From NCBI RefSeq assembly GCF_039383305.1, contig NZ_CP135009.1, forward strand, positions 300,001 to 332,000: a DNA stretch of 32,000 bases, given 5' to 3'. A program made the position numbers and the translations under genes. This DNA is from Candidatus Saccharimonadota bacterium. GTDB lineage: Bacteria; Pseudomonadota; Gammaproteobacteria; Enterobacterales; Enterobacteriaceae. Below are positions 17,967-32,000 of the stretch, in pieces (positions within the stretch are counted from its first letter, which is position 1; each line of letters begins with the position of its first letter). The notes under the pieces are model-generated. The model did no database searches and was not told the DNA's origin. It saw only the letters and a program-made list of their open reading frames with translations.

Positions 17967-18203
17967 ATGTTCCAAAAAAAAAATATATTAAATTTACAAG
18001 GATATCGTTGCCCTGAATTTTTATTAAATTTAAGAAAAAAACTACATTTTTCATTTTCTACACAAAAAATTGTTATTTTAACAGATGATATCTCCAATCA
18101 AAGAGATATCATCACATTTTGTTATTTTATGAAATATAAAATAATAACATATAAAAATACAAAAACACCTTATCAATATGTTATTCAAAAAACCTTTTTC
18201 TAA
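17967..18203 (+). CDS. tusA: Sulfur carrier protein TusA (SirA/YhhP)
   Basis: 78 aa. The active-site Cys context GYRCPEFLLNLRKKL matches E. coli GLRCPEPVMMVRKTV. ILTDDISNQRDIITFCYFM matches IIADDPATTRDIPSFCRFM. PYQYVIQK matches PYRYLIRK. Confidence 0.88.
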   Translation: MFQKKNILNLQGYRCPEFLLNLRKKLHFSFSTQKIVILTDDISNQRDIITFCYFMKYKIITYKNTKTPYQYVIQKTFF

Positions 18204-19349: not shown

Positions 19350-19608
19350 AATTTTAATAACCTGTTTTAAAAAACATTCTTCCTAAAAAATAAAATTTTA
19401 AAAATTAAAAAAATTTTTAAAATTTTTTATTTTTTTAAAAAATTTTTATAGTGTATCTATAAAAAAAACCATAAAATATATTAATCTTTTTTCTAAAAAT
19501 ATTATATTTTTTTTTAAAAAAATATTTCAAAATAAATATTATATTAATATATTATAATATAAATTATTTAAAATATTATTTAAATTTTTATTATAGGACT
19601 TGAAAATT

Positions 19609-22812: not shown

Positions 22813-23691
22813 ATCGAAGAATTACATGTTATTAAAGATATAAATACTGTTGGAAGTTGGGTATTTAAACACCATAGTTTATTATTTGCTTATATTTTTA
22901 ATTTTTCTACTGCAATTATTATTTTAATGTTTGGAGTATTTTTAGGACGTTTTGTTTCTAATGGCATTCATAGCATTTTAATTACTAAAAAAATTGATAA
23001 TACTATTTCAGGATTTTTATCAACTTTAATAAATTATACAATTATTACATTTTCTTTTATTGCTATATTAGAGAGAATTGGAGTACAAGCTAATTCTGTA
23101 ATTACCGTCTTAGGAGCCGCAGGAATGGCAGTAGGTTTAGCACTTCAAGGATCTCTTGCAAATTTTGCTGCAGGAGTATTATTAGTAACATTTCGTCCTT
23201 TAAAAACTGGCGAATATGTAAATTTTGGTTTAATTTCCGGAACAGTAATAGATGTACATATTTTTTATACAATTTTAAGAACTTTAGATGGTAAACGAAT
23301 AGTGATACCCAATGGAAAAATTATTTCAGGAAACATTGTTAACTATTCCCGAGAACCCATACGTAGAAATGAATTTTCCATTAATGTATCATATGATTCA
23401 GATGTAGATGTAGTAATAAAAATTTTAAAAAAAGTTTTAAAAAAAGAAAAAAGGATAATACATGAAAAAGGTACTTTAGTAGGTTTAAAAGAATTTGCTC
23501 CTTCTTCATTAAATTTTAAAGTGCGTTGTTGGAGCTATACTAAAGATTTAAATTCTGTATATTGGGATTTAATGTTGAAATTTAAAAAAACTTTGGATAA
23601 AAATCATATTTCAATACCTAATCCTCAAATGGATATTTATTTATATCAAAAAAATAAAAAAAAATTTAAAAGAAAAATATGGCGTAGTTAA
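22813..23691 (+). CDS. mscS: Small-conductance mechanosensitive channel MscS; homology starts at an ATC codon (first ATG is 22927)
   Basis: Read from 22813, the frame of the 22927..23691 ORF gives IEELHVIKDINTVGSWVFKHHSLLFAYIFNFSTAIIIL. This is collinear without gaps with E. coli [39 protein letters not shown]. There is no ATG, GTG or TTG in frame between the upstream stop (22786-22788) and 22927. AGGA at 22803-22806 lies 6 nt before ATC 22813. The TM3 pore helix GAAGMAVGLALQGSLANFAAGVLLV is conserved. Confidence 0.85.
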   Translation: MEELHVIKDINTVGSWVFKHHSLLFAYIFNFSTAIIILMFGVFLGRFVSNGIHSILITKKIDNTISGFLSTLINYTIITFSFIAILERIGVQANSVITVLGAAGMAVGLALQGSLANFAAGVLLVTFRPLKTGEYVNFGLISGTVIDVHIFYTILRTLDGKRIVIPNGKIISGNIVNYSREPIRRNEFSINVSYDSDVDVVIKILKKVLKKEKRIIHEKGTLVGLKEFAPSSLNFKVRCWSYTKDLNSVYWDLMLKFKKTLDKNHISIPNPQMDIYLYQKNKKKFKRKIWRS

Positions 23692-23717
23692 AAAGAAATC
23701 TACGCCATATTTATTTT
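23675..23717 (+). terminator. Intrinsic terminator overlapping the 3' end of mscS
   Basis: A perfect 13-bp stem pairs 23675-23687 (aaatatggcgtag) with 23700-23712 (ctacgccatattt) around a 12-nt loop. The loop contains the mscS TAA (23689-23691). A T-rich run (attttatatatttttt) follows. Confidence 0.6.
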
Positions 23718-23757
23718 ATATATTTTTTAAAAAAAAGTTAAAGGATTTTTTAAATTT

Positions 23758-26700
23758 ATGTTAAAAATTTATCAATCAAATAATATAAAAAAACTTTTTA
23801 AAATAGTTTGTTCAATTTTAAAAAAAAAAAAAAAAAAAATGTTTTAGAACCTGAATTTTTTTTAATTGATAATTTAGTAGTAAAAAAATGGATACAAATT
23901 TTTATTGCAAAAAAAATGAAGATTAGTGCTAATATAAAATTTATATCTTGTCAAAAATATTTAATAAATTTTTTAGAAACGCAAAATTTATACAATACAT
24001 CTTTCCCCTCTTATTTTAAAAAACAAGATTTAATTTGGATTTTAATTTTTTTGGAAGAAAAAAAAAAAATTAATTTAAAATTTTTAAAAACTACTACACT
24101 CTCAAAAAAAACAAATTTTTGTATATTATTAGCTACTATATTTCATACATATTTAATCGATGATCCTACAAATATTTTTAATTGGGAAAAAAATTTAACC
24201 TCTTTTCAAAAAAATTTTATTTTTCAAAAAAAAATATGGAGAAAAATAATAAAATATTTTAAAAAAAAATACAAAAAATTATCTTTTACAAAAACCTTAA
24301 AAAAATTTATTTCATATTCTAACTTTAAAAAAAAAAATAATAATATACCTAAAAGATTATTTATTTTCTCTACTGAACTTTTTAAACCTTTAAATATTTT
24401 TATATTAATGTATTTAAAAAAATATACTAACATATATATATTAGAATATGTTTCTGTTTTAAAAGATTTCTTATGTTACGAAATAAAAAAAAAAAAAAAA
24501 CTAAATTTAAATTATATTTCTTCTAATAATATTTCTGATTTTTTTTGGAGTTCTCAAAAAAAATTTTTTAAAATTAAAAGAAGAAAATTTTTTTATATTT
24601 CTTCAAATACAATTTTACAAATAGTTCAAAAAAAAAATTTATACTTTCAGAAATATAATGAATCTAACCATTTTAAAAATATACAAAAAAATATATTTTA
24701 TTCTAATCAAGATAATTCTTTTTACATTTCAAGATCTTATTCTAAAAGAGAAGAAGTTGAAAATATTTTTAATTATTTATTAATTCAATTTCAAAATAAT
24801 ATAACATTACAACCGCATGAAATATTAATTACATCACCTAATATAAAAAAATATTTTATACATATTAATAACATTTTTAAAAATTTTTCAATACAAAATA
24901 AATTTAAAATTCATAAAAAGAATAAATATATTTTAAAAAAAAAGAAAATTTTATTTATTTTTAAAAAAATATTAACATTATCATTTCAAGAATTTGAACA
25001 CGAATGGATTATAAATTTATTAGATTTATCATTTATTAGAAAAAAATTTTTAATTAAAAAAAAAGAAATAAAAATTTTATATTTTTTATTAGAAAAAATA
25101 GGAAAATTTTGGGGGTATAATAAAAAACACTTTAAAAAAATGTCATTACCGTATTTACCTTTTCATTCTTGGGAATATTTTATTAAAAGAATTATAACTG
25201 GAATTTTATTAAAATCTAAAGACAAAATTTGGTTAGATACATTACCATATAATATTCAGTCTCAAAAATATAAAATATTATTAGGGCACTTTATTAATTT
25301 CCTAGAAACATTAAATAAATGGAGATGTTTGTTATCTTCCACAAGAAATTTGAAAAATTGGATAGTTATAATTAAAAAATTAATTCAAGAAATATTTAAA
25401 ATACCTGAAAAATGGAAAAAATTTTTTAATATGTTACATAAAAATTTTTTAAAAAATATTCAAGTAGGAATTTTTTTAAATTATAAAAAAAAAATTTCAA
25501 TAAAAATTTTATTAAATAAAAATTTTTTAAATTTAACACCAAAAAAATATTATAAAAATTTTTTTTCTGGAACAATTAATATTGGTAATATTAATTTATC
25601 TTATAATTTACCTTTTAAAATTATATGTATTTTAGGATGTCATAAACTAAAAGATAGTACTATTTCTAAAAAAAACTCTATAACATTATTTAAAAAAAAT
25701 TTTAATATTCTACATGACATATACAGAAATTTAAAAAATAAAAATTTTTTTTTTGATACTATAATGTCTACAAAAAAATGTTTATATTTAAGTTATAAAA
25801 TTTCTAAAAATAGAAATATACTTTTACCTATGTTTTTAGAAGAATTAAAAGAATTTTTTCAAAATATATTTTTATTAAAAAAATTTCAAAAAAAAAAAAC
25901 TATTTTAAATAATATTTTTATTTCTTCAGAAAATTTATCTTTTAAAAAAAATGAAAATCTTAATTCTATAAATTTTGAAAAAAAAAAAATTATAAAGAAA
26001 AAGTATCATATTAATAAAAAATTTTCTCACTCATTAAATTTAAAACATTTAATAAAATTTTGGAAATCCCCAATTCAATACTTTTTTACAGAAATTTTAA
26101 ATATAAAAACAAATTTTTATCAAAATACAACATATTCATTAAATGAACCTTTCCTAATTAATCCTTTGAATAAATATTTAATAAACAAAAAATTCTTAAA
26201 TATGTTTCTTTATAAAAAAAAAATTAAATTTGAATACTTTCAAAAAAAAAGTATATTACCAAATAATAAATTAGGAAAAATTTATTGGAAAATAGAAAAA
26301 AAAAAAATGAAAAATTTATCTAAAAAAATTATTAAAAAAATTAATATTCCAAAAAAATTAAATTTTACTTTATCTTTAAATAAAATAACTTTAACCGGAA
26401 CTATAAAAAATATTCATAACTTTGAAATAATTCGTTGGATACCTTTACACTTAAAAACAAAAAATATTATGTCTTTATGGTTAGAACATTTGACATATTC
26501 TGCTTTAGGATATCAAAAAGAAAGTTTCTTATATAGTTTAGATAAAAAATATTTAAAATTTTCTATAATAAATAAAAAAAAAGCTCAAGAATACTTATTA
26601 CAATATTTAAACGGATATTATATGGGTATTAAAAAACCATTATTATTATTAGAATCTGGTATTAAATGGTTAAATTCTATATACTTTATAAAAAATAATA

Positions 26701-26909
26701 TCTTAAAAAAAAAAAATATAAACAAAAACTTAAAAAATAAAATTTTTCAAAAAACATGGAATGGAAATTTTTTATATCCGGGTGAAAAAAAAAATATTTA
26801 TATTCAAAAAATTATTCCTATTTTAACACCAGAAAAAATTAAAAAAATTAAAAAAATTTCAAAATATTGGTGGTTTCCACTTTTAAAATCTCTTTACTTT
26901 ATAAAATAA
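23758..26909 (+). CDS. recC: Exodeoxyribonuclease V gamma chain RecC; reading frame broken inside a poly(A) tract (23758..~23838 in one frame, the rest in the -1 frame)
   Basis: ATG 23758 encodes MLKIYQSNNIKKLFKIVCSILKKKKKK, matching E. coli RecC MLRVYHSNRLDVLEALMEFIV. This frame stops at TAG 23845-23847. The long ORF (track 23808..26909) continues with LEPEFFLIDNLVVKKWIQIFIAKKMKISANIKF, matching FEPEMILVQSTGMAQWLQMTLSQKFGIAANIDF. The two frames overlap only across the A20 run at 23820-23839. Confidence 0.88.
23820..23839 (+). repeat. Homopolymeric A20 tract at the recC frameshift
   Basis: Counted directly: A at 23820 plus 19 A at 23821-23839, then T at 23840. One extra A (or two fewer) would fuse the two recC frames. 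Confidence 0.95.
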
Positions 26910-26916
26910 AAAAAAT

Positions 26917-29900
26917 ATGAAAAAAATTTCATTACTTTTTAAAAAAAAAATAAATACAGGAATTATATTAATTGAGTCTTCAGCAGGTACTGGTAAAACT
27001 TTTACAATAGTAAAATTATTTTTAAATTTTTTATTTATAAAAAATTCTAAAAATTTATATAAATATTCAATACAAAAAATTTTACTATTAACTTTTACAA
27101 AAAATTCAAAAATTGAATTAAATAATAGAATTATTGAAACTTTAAAAAATTTACTTCAAATATATAAAAAAAAAAATATAAAAGAAATTTTTAAAAACAA
27201 AATATTAACATCTACAGAAAATATAAATGATATAGAAAATCATTTAAAAAAAATTAAAAAAAACATACATAATCTTGAAATTTATACTGTACATAGTTTT
27301 TTCTGGAAAATTTTACAAGAATTCCAATTTTCAATTTTACAAGATATTCCAAAAAATATTTTAAAAAATATAAAAAATTTATTATTTCAAGCTACTAAAA
27401 ATTTTTGGAGAAAAATTTTTTATAATTTTAAAAAAGATATTTTAAAAATTTTAATAAAAAAATGGTATTCCCCACTTATTTTATATAAATCAATCTTTAT
27501 AAAAATATCATTAAATCAGTACACAAAATCTATATTTCCAATAAAAAAAATATTAAATAAAAAACATAAATATTTTATTAATACTATTAATACTACTAAA
27601 AATTTATGGATATTAAAAAAAAAAAAAATTATACCTCTGTTAAAAAATTTTGTATTAAATAAAAGAATTTATACATCTAAAAATATAAAAAAATGGCATA
27701 ATGAAATTTCTCAATGGGCTTATACTCCCACTAAAAATTATAATTTTCCAAAAGTTTTAAAATATTTTTCTAATTTACAATTTAAATCAAAAATTTTTAA
27801 TGAAAATAAAATGTTAATTTTTAAAAATATAGAAAAATTTTTAAAAATAGATTTTTCATTACATAAAATTTTTTTAACATTAGCTACTTCTGAAATTTTT
27901 TTTATTTTTCAAAAAATTAAAATAAAAAAAAATTATATTGATTTTAATGATATTACTCAAATTTTTTTAAAAAATGTTAAAAAAAAAAAATCATTATTAA
28001 AAAAATATATACAAAAAAAATATCCTATGGTTTTAATTGATGAATGCCAAGACCTTGATATTTTTCAAAATAAAATATTTATAAAAATATATCAAAATTC
28101 TTTAAAAAATACATTATTTTTAATTGGAGACCCTAAACAATCAATTTATAGTTTTAGAAATGTAAATTTAAAATATTACTTTTTTTTTCATAAAATAGCT
28201 CAAGAAAAATATAATTTAAATATAAATTATCGATCTTCACCTAAAATTATACAAAGTATCAATGAAATATTTCTATATAAAAAAAATTCATTTTTTATAA
28301 AAAAATTAAAATATTCTTTTTGTCAACATTCCCCAAAAAATTCTGAATTCAATTTTTTTCTAAAAAACATCATACAAGAACCTCTAAAATTTTTTTTATG
28401 TTCACAAAATTCTATTACAAAAAAAAAATACTATAAAATTTCAGCAAAAGAATGTGCAGCAAGTATCTCAAAATGGATATTATTATCCTCTAAAAAACAA
28501 GCAATGTTAACTTTTCAAAAAAATATTCAAAAAAAAATTTTACCAAAAGATATTGTCATTTTAATAAAAAATAAACTTGAAGCCAAAATTATTAAAAAAG
28601 AATTAAAAAAACATGGTTTGTCGTCTTTTTATACTTCTGAAAAAAAAAATATTTTTTTACAAAAAATTTCTTTAGAAATATTATGGATCTTAGATTGTAT
28701 TATACATCCCAATAATGAATATAAATTTCAAAAAATTTTTTTAACAAGATTTTTTAATATAAATATTTATAAAATTCATAAAATTAATACAAATTTAAAT
28801 AATAAAATAAAAATTCTAAAAAAAATAAATCAATATTATAAAATTTGGAACAAATTTGGTATTTTTGAAATGTTAAAAAAAATTTTTTTTGAATATCAAA
28901 AAAATTCTCAAATAATACAAGAAAATTTTTTAATAAAGGAGCAAGAATTTATAATTCTTATTCATATTTTAGAAAAAAAAAATAATTTAATATATAATAA
29001 ATTTCTTTTAATTCAATGGTTACAAAAAAAAATACAAAAAAATTATGAATTATCTACGCATCAAAAAAATTTTTCTATTAATTCTAAAAAAAAAATTCAA
29101 ATTATGACTATTTTTAAAGCAAAAGGATTAGAATTTCCTATTGTCTGGATTCCATTTTTTAGTTTTTTTAATAATAAAATTAATGAATTTTTAACATATA
29201 AAATAATTTTTCAAAAAAAAACATTCAATATAAAATACTTTAAAAAAAATATTAATCATCTTTTAAAAGAAAAATTTTCCGAAGAACTAAGATTATTATA
29301 TGTTGCAATTACACGAAGTATAATTCATTGTCGTATTAGTATTGCTACTATAAAATCTAAAAAAGAAAATATCTATGATAATGCATTAAAATATTTATTA
29401 AAAAATAGAATTAATAAAAAAAAATTATATTTTTCTAATATTTTAAAAAGTACTCCAAAAAATCTTGTTAAGATATACCAAAAAAAAACAAAATTTTATA
29501 AAATAAAAAATTTAAATAAAATTTCTTACATAGAAAAAAAAAAAAATCTTATAAAAAATATTTGTTTACCTTGGGAAATCCTAAGTTATTCTAAAATTTT
29601 ACATAAACAAAAAAAAATTATTAAATTACCTAAAAAAATTTTTGATACATCTCACTCTTTTAAAACAATTACTAAAAAAAAATATACTTCTTACAATTTT
29701 CCAAAAGGTAAAAAAAATGGTATATTAATACATAAAATATTAAAAAATATTAATTTTTCAAATTTCTCTAAAGATTCTTATATTTTAACTAATACAGAAA
29801 ATCTAATATTAACAAAAAAAAAAAAAAAATTTTTTTCTAAATGGATATTTAATATTTTAAATTGTCCTATATATTCTAAAAAATTTTCTTTAAATAAAAT

Positions 29901-30384
29901 TCAAAAAAAACAATACATTCAAGAAATGCAATTCTTTATACCATTACAAAAAAAATTTAATATTCAAAACTTCAATAAAATCATTAAAACTTATGATGTA
30001 AATTCTAAAAAACTCCCTGATATTCAATACCCTGATATTACTGGTATGTTAACAGGGGCTATAGATTTAATATATATTTACAATAATCAATATTTTTTAT
30101 TAGATTATAAAACCAATTGGTTAGGACCAAAAAATATTTTTTATAATCAAAAAAATATATATAAAGAAATCTATAAAAATCGTTATGATGTTCAATATCA
30201 AATTTATAGTATCGCTTTACATCGATATTTAATAAATAAATTAAAAAATTATAAATATTCTAAACATTTTGGAGGCATAATATATTTATTCATTAGATCT
30301 TTCGATAATATTCATAATAAAAATGGAATTTTTTTTTATCTTCCAAACTATTCTTTAATTAAAAAACTAAATTTATTATTTTAG
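26917..30384 (+). CDS. recB: Exodeoxyribonuclease V beta chain RecB (helicase-nuclease)
   Basis: 1155 aa. Walker A IESSAGTGKTFTI, DExQ box LIDECQDLD and motif III GDPKQSIYSFR are present. The C-terminal nuclease motif GMLTGAIDLIYIYNNQYFLLDYKTNWLG matches E. coli GMLKGFIDLVFRHEGRYYLLDYKSNWLG. RYDVQYQIYSIALHRYL is also present. The start is 7 nt after the recC stop. TAG stop. Confidence 0.95.
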   Translation: MKKISLLFKKKINTGIILIESSAGTGKTFTIVKLFLNFLFIKNSKNLYKYSIQKILLLTFTKNSKIELNNRIIETLKNLLQIYKKKNIKEIFKNKILTSTENINDIENHLKKIKKNIHNLEIYTVHSFFWKILQEFQFSILQDIPKNILKNIKNLLFQATKNFWRKIFYNFKKDILKILIKKWYSPLILYKSIFIKISLNQYTKSIFPIKKILNKKHKYFINTINTTKNLWILKKKKIIPLLKNFVLNKRIYTSKNIKKWHNEISQWAYTPTKNYNFPKVLKYFSNLQFKSKIFNENKMLIFKNIEKFLKIDFSLHKIFLTLATSEIFFIFQKIKIKKNYIDFNDITQIFLKNVKKKKSLLKKYIQKKYPMVLIDECQDLDIFQNKIFIKIYQNSLKNTLFLIGDPKQSIYSFRNVNLKYYFFFHKIAQEKYNLNINYRSSPKIIQSINEIFLYKKNSFFIKKLKYSFCQHSPKNSEFNFFLKNIIQEPLKFFLCSQNSITKKKYYKISAKECAASISKWILLSSKKQAMLTFQKNIQKKILPKDIVILIKNKLEAKIIKKELKKHGLSSFYTSEKKNIFLQKISLEILWILDCIIHPNNEYKFQKIFLTRFFNINIYKIHKINTNLNNKIKILKKINQYYKIWNKFGIFEMLKKIFFEYQKNSQIIQENFLIKEQEFIILIHILEKKNNLIYNKFLLIQWLQKKIQKNYELSTHQKNFSINSKKKIQIMTIFKAKGLEFPIVWIPFFSFFNNKINEFLTYKIIFQKKTFNIKYFKKNINHLLKEKFSEELRLLYVAITRSIIHCRISIATIKSKKENIYDNALKYLLKNRINKKKLYFSNILKSTPKNLVKIYQKKTKFYKIKNLNKISYIEKKKNLIKNICLPWEILSYSKILHKQKKIIKLPKKIFDTSHSFKTITKKKYTSYNFPKGKKNGILIHKILKNINFSNFSKDSYILTNTENLILTKKKKKFFSKWIFNILNCPIYSKKFSLNKIQKKQYIQEMQFFIPLQKKFNIQNFNKIIKTYDVNSKKLPDIQYPDITGMLTGAIDLIYIYNNQYFLLDYKTNWLGPKNIFYNQKNIYKEIYKNRYDVQYQIYSIALHRYLINKLKNYKYSKHFGGIIYLFIRSFDNIHNKNGIFFYLPNYSLIKKLNLLF

Positions 30385-30393
30385 GAAAAAATA

Positions 30394-32000
30394 GTGTTAT
30401 TAAGTAAAAAAAATTTTTTAAGAATTTTAAAAAAATCTAAAATTAAAAAAATAATTCAAGAAATAGATTTTTATTGTATAAAAACTTTATTGCCATATTT
30501 TTCAATAAAAAAATTATTAATTATATTAATTTTAAATTATGAATCGAATAAAGGAAATACTTGTCTTTCAATAAAATATTTTTCTAAGAATCATATTTTA
30601 AAAAAAAAAATTCAAAAACTACAATATTTTTGGAATATTATAAAAAATATTAAATTATGGAATAATAAAAAAAATTTACCTTATATAATTAAAAAAAAAT
30701 ACATATATTTATCACGATACTGGAAACAAGAAAAAAAAATTTTAAAATTTTTTAAAAATAAAACTATTAATTATACTAGAATTTTAAAAAAGTATTCTAA
30801 AATATATAAAAATTTTAATTTTAAAAATATAGATAAAAAACAAAAATTAGCTATTGGAATAATATTATTTCATAAAATTTCTTTTTTAATTGGAGGACCA
30901 GGAACTGGAAAAACAACAATTTTAGCATATATTTTAATAATATTAATTAAAACAACTACTCACACATTAAAAATTGCATTAACAGCTTTAACGGGAAAAG
31001 CCACAACACATTTAACAAATACAATATATAAAATTTTACACAAACAAAAATTTTCTTCATTAGAAAATAAAAAATATTTAATCACTGCAAACACCTTACA
31101 CAAAACTTTATTAATTCAAAAAAATTTTATTATTAACAAAAAATACAAAAAAAAAATAAATTTTGATCTTTTAATTATTGATGAAGCTTCAATGTTAGAT
31201 ACTAATATTATGGAAATTTTATGTCAAAGAATTTCTCTACATACAAAAATAATATTTTCTGGAGATATAAACCAATTACAACCTATTGAAACCGCTTCAA
31301 TTTTAAAAGAAATTTGTTATTTTGCAAAAAATACATACAATCCTATATTTTCACAATATATTTCAATATTTACGAAACAAAAATTAAAAATTTGTAAAAA
31401 AATATCTGAAAAAAATATTAAAAATTCAATTGTGATTTTAAAAAAAAATTATCGTTTTAACACAAATAATATGGTAATAAAGTTCACAAAAATTTTAGAA
31501 AATAAAAAAAAAATTTTTTTAAAAGATTTAATTTTTTTAAAAAATACTAAAAATTTTATTTTATCTGATATTTCTACAGAATTTTATTATAAAAAAATGT
31601 TAAAAAGTATCAAAAATTTATACCAAAAACATTGGAAACTAATAAAAAAAAAAAACAATAATTTTCCTTTAAATATTAAAAAAATTTTAAAAAATTTTCA
31701 AAAAAATCGAGTATTATGTGCAATAAAAGATGGATATTTCGGGGAAAAATTTTTAAATAATTTTTTAGACAATATTTTTTTTCAAAAAAATAATCTATCT
31801 CAAAAAAAATCTAAAATATGGTATCATGGAAAAATAATTTTAATTACAAAAAATAATTTTAAATTAAAATTATTTAATGGAATAATTGGAATTTGTATAT
31901 TATATAAAAAAAAATATAAAATATTTTTTCAATCTTCTAATAATACAATTTTCTCTATTAATCCTATATTAATAAAAAATTTTCAAAGTGCATGGGTTAT
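30394..32000 (+). CDS. recD: Exodeoxyribonuclease V alpha chain RecD (5' portion; continues past the window end)
   Basis: Not in the ORF track because there is no stop before the window end. Manual translation from GTG 30394 to 32000 has no stop. Walker A LIGGPGTGKTT (30889-30921), TALTGKA, TLHKTL, Walker B LLIIDEASMLD, FSGDINQLQPIE, KKNYRF and LFNGIIGI are collinear with E. coli RecD. AGGA at 30383-30386 overlaps the recB TAG and lies 7 nt before the GTG. Confidence 0.9.
   Translation, partial: MLLSKKNFLRILKKSKIKKIIQEIDFYCIKTLLPYFSIKKLLIILILNYESNKGNTCLSIKYFSKNHILKKKIQKLQYFWNIIKNIKLWNNKKNLPYIIKKKYIYLSRYWKQEKKILKFFKNKTINYTRILKKYSKIYKNFNFKNIDKKQKLAIGIILFHKISFLIGGPGTGKTTILAYILIILIKTTTHTLKIALTALTGKATTHLTNTIYKILHKQKFSSLENKKYLITANTLHKTLLIQKNFIINKKYKKKINFDLLIIDEASMLDTNIMEILCQRISLHTKIIFSGDINQLQPIETASILKEICYFAKNTYNPIFSQYISIFTKQKLKICKKISEKNIKNSIVILKKNYRFNTNNMVIKFTKILENKKKIFLKDLIFLKNTKNFILSDISTEFYYKKMLKSIKNLYQKHWKLIKKKNNNFPLNIKKILKNFQKNRVLCAIKDGYFGEKFLNNFLDNIFFQKNNLSQKKSKIWYHGKIILITKNNFKLKLFNGIIGICILYKKKYKIFFQSSNNTIFSINPILIKNFQSAWV

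Follow-up and report, generated by a model that had tools for sequence, protein, structure and literature searches.

The recC gene of Buchnera aphidicola (Nippolachnus piri), an aphid symbiont, is divided near its 5' end between two reading frames that meet in a run of 20 adenines (A20). On balance, this is best explained as a real -1 frameshift that is tolerated via transcriptional slippage, so that the gene would remain functional at reduced output. The locus was analysed in a stretch of 32,000 nucleotides (nt) of chromosome CP135009 (417,660 bp), hereafter the window, in which the local gene order is pgk-fbaA-mscS-recC-recB-recD. With a guanine-plus-cytosine (GC) content of 18.5%, the window comes from a reduced, AT-rich obligate endosymbiont genome, the same type of host as that of the frameshifted genes described by Tamas and others (2008). 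The lesion is likewise of that type, being one indel in a sense-strand homopolymer of at least 9 nt that is flanked on either side by homologous coding sequence.

The coordinates of the recC region are given in Table 1. The short upstream frame is homologous to RecC from residue 1 onwards: the same segment reads MLDIYQSNDIKKLFKIICNIL in the Buchnera of Tuberolachnus salignus, the sister lineage, and MLRVYHSN... in the Escherichia coli protein (1W36_C). The recC ATG of T. salignus is likewise preceded by AAGG, next to which the Shine-Dalgarno (SD)-like motif of N. piri can be placed. The upstream frame occupies positions with a remainder of 1 on division by 3 and the downstream frame, displaced by -1, those with a remainder of 0; therefore one additional A (A21), the loss of two (A18) or a -1 ribosomal shift would repair the frame, and four additional A would work too. 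The initial annotation had described this arrangement, including the meeting of the frames solely within the tract, the stop at TAG 23845, the clean downstream frame of more than 3 kb and repair by either an extra A or a -1 ribosomal slip. All of this was borne out by the sequence and by frame arithmetic, and the product of about 1050 amino acids (aa) that it had expected from one extra A proved to be exactly 1050 aa long. The repaired protein reads ...SILKKKKKKNVLEPEFF, and the residues following its lysine run are NVLEPEFFLIDNLVVK.

Within the repaired gene, A20 falls at codons 22-28 of 1050, the homologous position being at about nucleotide 63 of recC. A tract of A19 or A22 would bring the third frame into use, where translation reads CFRT and then reaches TGA 23852, so that the non-productive frames end 2-5 codons past the tract, after MF and CFRT, respectively. 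A20 is the longest homopolymer of the window, the runners-up measuring 16 nt. In dinucleotide shuffles, runs of this size were expected at 0.05 per window, and at least one was obtained in 3 of 100 shuffles.

Table 1. Features of the recC region, in window coordinates.
Feature	Position	Strand	Remarks
A20 tract	23820..23839	+	Sole meeting point of the two recC frames; one A short (or two long)
Shine-Dalgarno-like AAGGA	23741..23745	+	12 nt upstream of ATG 23758
Native recC start and N-terminal frame, MLKIYQSNNIKKLFKIVCSILKKKKKKMF	23758..23847	+	29 codons; stops at TAG 23845-23847
Downstream recC frame	23808..26909	+	1033 codons; treated by NCBI as the entire gene, start TTG 23808
Full recC if the tract is decoded with one extra A	23758..26909	+	1050 aa
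recB, intact	26917..30384	+	1155 aa; TIGR00609 727 bits vs cutoff 696 (NCBIfam equivalog level)
recD	30394..32000	+	Open; continues past the window edge; 604 aa in the full record
Hairpin GGCGTAG / 12-nt loop / CTACGCC	23681..23706	+	Overlaps the mscS stop codon; T-rich sequence after

From homology along its full length and its position in a recC-recB-recD operon, the gene is identified as recC (exodeoxyribonuclease V gamma subunit). The Pfam family Exonuc_V_gamma spans the junction unbroken at residues 2-301 of the repaired protein, and RecC_C is found at residues 759-974, both passing their cutoffs. A profile of Buchnera RecC sequences aligned with residues 1-1119 of E. coli RecC (PDB 1W36_C) with an E value of 3e-212, with its own MlkiyqSn placed against MLRVYHSN. 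The repaired protein scored below the NCBIfam equivalog cutoffs (402 vs 1470 bits; 335 vs 583), which, for a RecC that is clearly syntenic, indicates the extreme divergence of these proteins. The partner genes were found intact, as the initial annotation had stated: RecB carries SAGTGKT, LIDECQD and the nuclease motif LLDYKTN, and RecD carries GGPGTGKT and IIDEAS. An AlphaFold2 model of the repaired RecC, built on a 15-sequence alignment, was discarded (mean predicted local distance difference test score, pLDDT, of 62; predicted template modelling score, pTM, of 0.33; residues 1-10 below 50), and this model is uninformative on the need for the N-terminal strand of RecC.

The condition of the gene suggests that it is maintained. 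In the recC frame there are 0 internal stops in 1033 codons, the other two frames holding 109 and 111, and 7.5-10% of the possible point substitutions would create a stop. The gene carries 27 further A/T runs of at least 8 nt (one A16 and six of 12 nt), every one of them in frame. A relative-rate comparison was made with three taxa, namely N. piri, T. salignus (LN890285) and the outgroup LR217700. The protein branch of recC measured 0.338 in N. piri and 0.348 in T. salignus, a ratio of 0.97 that shows no acceleration and lies within the range of 13 neighbouring genes (0.74-1.83). Over the 21 N-terminal codons, the two species differ at 6 codons synonymously and at 4 non-synonymously, with the ATG and the SD-like motif retained. 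The multiple disruptions, lost start and elevated rate of an eroding pseudogene were not found in recC, which has a single lesion and keeps both its ATG and its SD-like motif. By the open reading frame (ORF), the rate, the N-terminal codons and the state of recB and recD, a long-dead gene is excluded.

The same site was then compared at the DNA level across 13 Buchnera lineages, a subset of the published genomes, for which a contig scan gave 9 loci. Most Buchnera have a lysine patch at the homologous position of recC. The run is in frame in the symbionts of Pemphigus obesinymphae (A8), Pterocomma populeum (A9), Periphyllus lyropictus (A10), Mollitrichosiphum nigrofasciatum (A12) and T. salignus (A15 in two genomes). 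It is out of frame in those of Ceratovacuna japonica (AP026065; A14; L020:1424-1560), Drepanosiphum platanoidis (OZ026537.1 and OZ060412.1; A16 in both; L019:1421-1560 and L023:401-500) and N. piri (A20), that is, in 3 of the 13 lineages. Every out-of-frame case is one A short, keeps an ATG-started N-terminal ORF and has an open remainder of 989-1033 codons. RecC identity among the three frameshifted lineages is 28-34%, and nearer relatives of both N. piri and D. platanoidis are in frame, which together point to independent, non-sister events. The truncated-looking RecC of Periphyllus lyropictus and of a JGI sequence were traced to mis-called starts with the frame intact, and these are not frameshifts. 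In a metagenome scan, three loci were recovered, none with the 5' end of recC. Repeating the protein search with the alignment yielded almost nothing more, since lysine-rich words saturated the pool of candidates. As a separate observation, recC of C. japonica holds a second homopolymer of 20 nt that is in frame (L020:2470-2489), so runs of such length can persist inside the recC frame.

D. platanoidis offers the closest parallel (OZ060412.1, CAL4322543.1). Its frames part at the same site, a lysine run after the conserved N-terminal helix, where it is also one A short, and a mini-ORF for the N-terminus is followed by a remainder of about 1030 codons. It differs in having A16 instead of A20 and in belonging to an independent lineage with 30% RecC identity. 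The treatment in the databases differs as well. In OZ060412.1 the submitter's coding sequence spans 3176 nt for a product of 1058 aa (CAL4322543.1, MIKIISYQDTNDLIKKICLIYKKKKKNIFKKELF...), a length that implies deliberate annotation across the break, whereas the N. piri records mask the break by a TTG start. Thus, a poly(A) frameshift in recC is already treated as read-through in the public record. In a literature search, a published recC poly(A) frameshift in Buchnera was not found.

The proposed course of events is as follows. A shorter lysine-coding run would have grown into the 20-A tract, ending one base short. On the fully homopolymeric hybrid, RNA polymerase would slip backward and add As, and a sizeable minority of transcripts would then carry A21 (or A18 or A24), from which the full 1050-aa RecC could be translated from ATG 23758. 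Sliding of ribosomes on the lysine codons possibly contributes in-frame product, and heterogeneity of tract length among the many genome copies may contribute as well. The wrong frames stop just past this 5' tract, so the abortive products would be 29-31 residues long and cheap, which may explain why a frameshift is tolerated at this site.

Both slippage and the production of RecC protein are inferred by us from precedent (Tamas et al., 2008, per PMC3017870; PMC5574713). According to the summary by Williams and Wernegreen (PMC3017870), Tamas et al. (2008) found that frameshifted genes of Buchnera and Blochmannia have mixed pools of mRNA, in which about 30% of the transcripts are full-length, and that they yield functional protein. 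Among the insertions made during transcription in Buchnera, 151 of 157 were single bases in A/T runs, and the insertion rate climbs exponentially with run length, as measured up to 11 nt (PMC5574713). E. coli ribosomes that meet a run of A11 or longer slide and shift to another frame (PMC4363877).

Several points weigh against slippage rescue in N. piri. The Illumina libraries were amplified by polymerase chain reaction (PCR), and a 20-nt run could be miscounted in them. The frameshift is older than the separation of the two strains, which are just 0.02% diverged, and a very recent inactivation would look alike; inactivation within about 1% divergence may be compatible with the open frame, the rate, the N-terminal codons and the state of recB and recD. 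T. salignus is in frame, which makes the frameshift lineage-specific and not ancient, and gives no support to long-term maintenance in the N. piri lineage. In addition, the RecC homologue of Buchnera (Astegopteryx bambusae) is a protein of 829 aa, annotated as hypothetical in two genomes, from which the N-terminal domain is absent. This protein may represent real erosion of recC, which may then be dispensable in some Buchnera, and the argument from function is tempered accordingly.

The first of these points leads to an explanation that we judge unlikely: a consensus or assembly artefact, in which the true modal genomic tract is A21 (or A18), recC is intact, and stutter of PCR and Illumina sequencing at the 20-nt run, combined with polishing by Pilon, led to the same one-base miscount in both samples. 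The data paper describes PCR-amplified libraries, NovaSeq 2x150 sequencing, assembly with MEGAHIT, NOVOPlasty and Geneious, and polishing with Pilon, and one laboratory applied this one pipeline to both strains, which it names 'Nippolachnus piri 09' (CP135006) and 'Nippolachnus piri 10' (CP135009) (PMC11193766). The initial annotation had proposed a comparison of tract lengths in sister strains. The second strain (chromosome CP135006, 417,640 bp, also Buchnera aphidicola (Nippolachnus piri); near-identical protein XAJ79195.1) also has A20, and the tract of T. salignus is the in-frame A15 given above. A comparison of 18.2 kb between the two N. piri strains shows 4 substitutions and 2 one-base indels, a divergence of about 0.02%, and all 25 of the runs of at least 11 nt in this segment are identical between them. 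The two indels, A7/A8 straight after the tusA stop (18194-18201) and T9/T10 in the asd-marC spacer (19498-19506), are both non-coding.

Logan provided assemblies of four SRA runs, each haplotype being represented by two of them. One contig (L015, SRR28869278), an independent assembly, crosses the site with A20, and this argues against a miscount. A second (L013, SRR28869279) has its 3' end right after the 20th A, at the equivalent of window position 23839. This hints at heterogeneity of length in the reads, since the end may reflect an A20/A21 branch in the k=31 graph, and other causes of it are possible. The remaining two contigs stop some 20-25 nt short of ATG 23758, on its upstream side. 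Further evidence against the artefact comes from the other long runs: all seven window runs of 14-16 nt lie within genes and are in frame, which speaks for a pipeline without general miscounting. Also, the same site is shifted at A14 and A16 elsewhere, in one species in two assemblies, where miscounts are much less likely. As to the composition of the window, all 26 A/T runs of at least 12 nt are coding, sense-strand poly(A) that specifies lysine runs, and four in-frame A16 tracts occur, in engB, prfB, recC and recB, three of the four being at 8294-8309, 24485-24500 and 29814-29829. Such an abundance of sense-strand poly(A) means that the symbiont proteome must be heavily exposed to slippage.

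If the tract length is accepted, a recent pseudogene has to be considered, that is, inactivation of recC shortly before the strain split, too recently for more damage to have accumulated, with no functional RecC made. Gene erosion in Buchnera usually begins with a homopolymer frameshift (PMC3268670, PMC3017870), and the in-frame sister species, the small divergence of the two strains and the apparent erosion of recC in A. bambusae all fit this explanation, which we nevertheless consider unlikely. Given the share of stop-creating substitutions and the 27 slippery runs, a recC free of constraint would keep its frame open for about 1% divergence at most. Excess protein divergence is absent from the N. 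piri branch, and recB and recD, both of which need RecC, are intact. Moreover, three independent lineages have the same single lesion with the rest of the gene intact, which is not expected of freshly dead genes. The statement of the initial annotation that recC is not a dead pseudogene gains comparative support from the rate ratio, the N-terminal ORF and recurrence in two other lineages with an otherwise intact recC.

Public annotation points to another product. The 1033-aa ORF is the NCBI protein XAJ79576.1 / WP_343128833.1, and the record presents recC as intact from TTG 23808, with the frameshift unflagged. An N-terminally truncated RecC would, on this account, be made from the internal TTG, the first 17 residues would be dispensable and slippage would be unneeded. 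The same treatment was given to recC of D. platanoidis in RefSeq (1031 aa, ATT start) and of C. japonica in GenBank (TTG start). We regard such a protein as very unlikely. In the region before TTG 23808 no purine-rich or SD-like motif was found, in contrast to the AAGGA upstream of ATG 23758, and the TTG lies within a translated upstream ORF. That ORF keeps its ATG and has changed mostly at synonymous sites, which is unexpected in untranslated DNA, and from Buchnera to E. coli few segments of the protein are as well conserved as its MxxxYxSN N-terminus. These residues, which we take to be the first strand of RecC domain 1 in the 1W36 structure, also count against a functional protein that lacks them.

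Buchnera is polyploid, with many chromosomes per cell. Heterogeneity at the DNA level, resembling phase variation, could therefore be envisaged: replication slippage would produce a mix of A20 and A21 chromosomes, and the intact copies would supply RecC although A20 is what the consensus shows. Between strains, indels concentrate in homopolymers (PMC3268670), as both indels in the 18.2 kb illustrate, and the stop of contig L013 at the end of A20 fits a de Bruijn branch between A20 followed by T and A21. Of the explanations weighed here this is the least probable, the same modal length being found in two populations and the contig end having alternative causes. Such a mix would in any case add to transcriptional slippage and does not exclude it.

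Three recoding mechanisms were rejected. For classical programmed -1 frameshifting of the dnaX type, the slippery A run is in place but a stimulator is not: the 121 nt 3' of the tract fold no better than shuffles (z = -0.63), and the 15 nt upstream of it contain no GG-containing motif or internal SD. Termination-reinitiation fails because the recC frame has no start codon near TAG 23845, its first in-frame ATG being codon 54 of the repaired protein. Programmed transcriptional realignment does not agree with the in-frame state of T. salignus and most Buchnera, nor with the independence of the three out-of-frame lineages.

Set beside known systems, slippage rescue of recC resembles most closely the class described by Tamas and others (2008) and by Wernegreen et al. 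(2010), of which PMC3017870 gives a summary. In common with that class, N. piri recC has an AT-rich obligate insect endosymbiont as host, a one-base indel in sense poly(A), a gene that is otherwise intact, a frameshift common to geographically separate samples and no rate acceleration. It differs in its tract of 20 nt, the Blochmannia tracts being given as up to 12 bp (PMC3017870), in being known from sequence alone, and in the absence of the frameshift from the sister Tuberolachnus. With the ribosome sliding described by Koutmou and others (2015), it shares unbroken AAA codons, well above the A11 threshold; there, however, the outcome is lost protein output, whereas in N. piri a partial rescue is proposed (PMC4363877).

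Programmed frameshifts (prfB +1, dnaX -1) and realignment (insertion sequence elements, Thermus dnaX) are similar in that the full product needs non-standard decoding at a slippery run. They differ in that recC has no stimulatory element and its out-of-frame state is absent in the sister. The recC frameshift thus looks accidental and tolerated, not programmed. In the contingency loci of pathogens, which underlie phase variation, the frame is likewise set by a mononucleotide run that is hypermutable and lies close to the 5' end of the coding sequence. In contrast, no ON/OFF polymorphism is seen between the two strains, and for Buchnera, a symbiont that is clonal and intracellular, switching would bring no obvious benefit. 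A canonical programmed site is found elsewhere in the window, in prfB (7431-8499), which keeps its +1 frameshift: a 29-codon ORF ends ...AAG AGG AAT CTT TGA, with the SD-like AGAGG followed by CUU UGA at 7515-7520, and the +1 frame is open from 7519 into the RF-1/PCRF-domain ORF at 7750-8499.

It is plausible that N. piri recC joins the known class of slippage-rescued genes, in which it would be unusual for its tract length and for recurrence at one recC site. To the endosymbiont genes that survive a homopolymer frameshift it would add an extreme case, with 20 A. At least three Buchnera lineages have independently acquired a frameshift at one recC site, each time in a form that is repairable by the commonest polymerase error (+1 A). 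A bolder proposal, to which we give little credence, is that the run has been recurrently selected in these lineages as an attenuator kept one A short, the frequency of polymerase slippage setting RecC output and RecBCD stoichiometry in a recA-less cell. In RefSeq and two GenBank records, automated annotation masks the frameshifts through TTG or ATT starts, and surveys of gene content and pseudogenes in Buchnera will consequently miscount. Buchnera retains RecBCD without RecA, and a slippage-dependent recC would offer a workable system for asking how much RecBCD Buchnera needs.

Upstream of recC, the hairpin at the end of mscS (Table 1) is likely the mscS terminator, a function suggested by its sequence and position; its arms are also present in the alignment with T. 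salignus and LR217700. Because it likely terminates mscS, transcription of recC probably begins at a separate start just downstream of it. In sequence of 18% GC, consensus scans for promoters and terminators near recC were uninformative, and the terminator scan missed this hairpin because its loop exceeds 8 nt. The start of mscS (22813-23691) is itself unusual, as ATG, GTG and TTG are all absent at the homologous N-terminus. The conserved IEELHVIKDINTVGSW starts at ATC 22813, which an AGGA precedes by 6 nt; NCBI takes this ATC as the start of a 292-aa protein, and the first canonical start, ATG 22927, would cost 38 residues.

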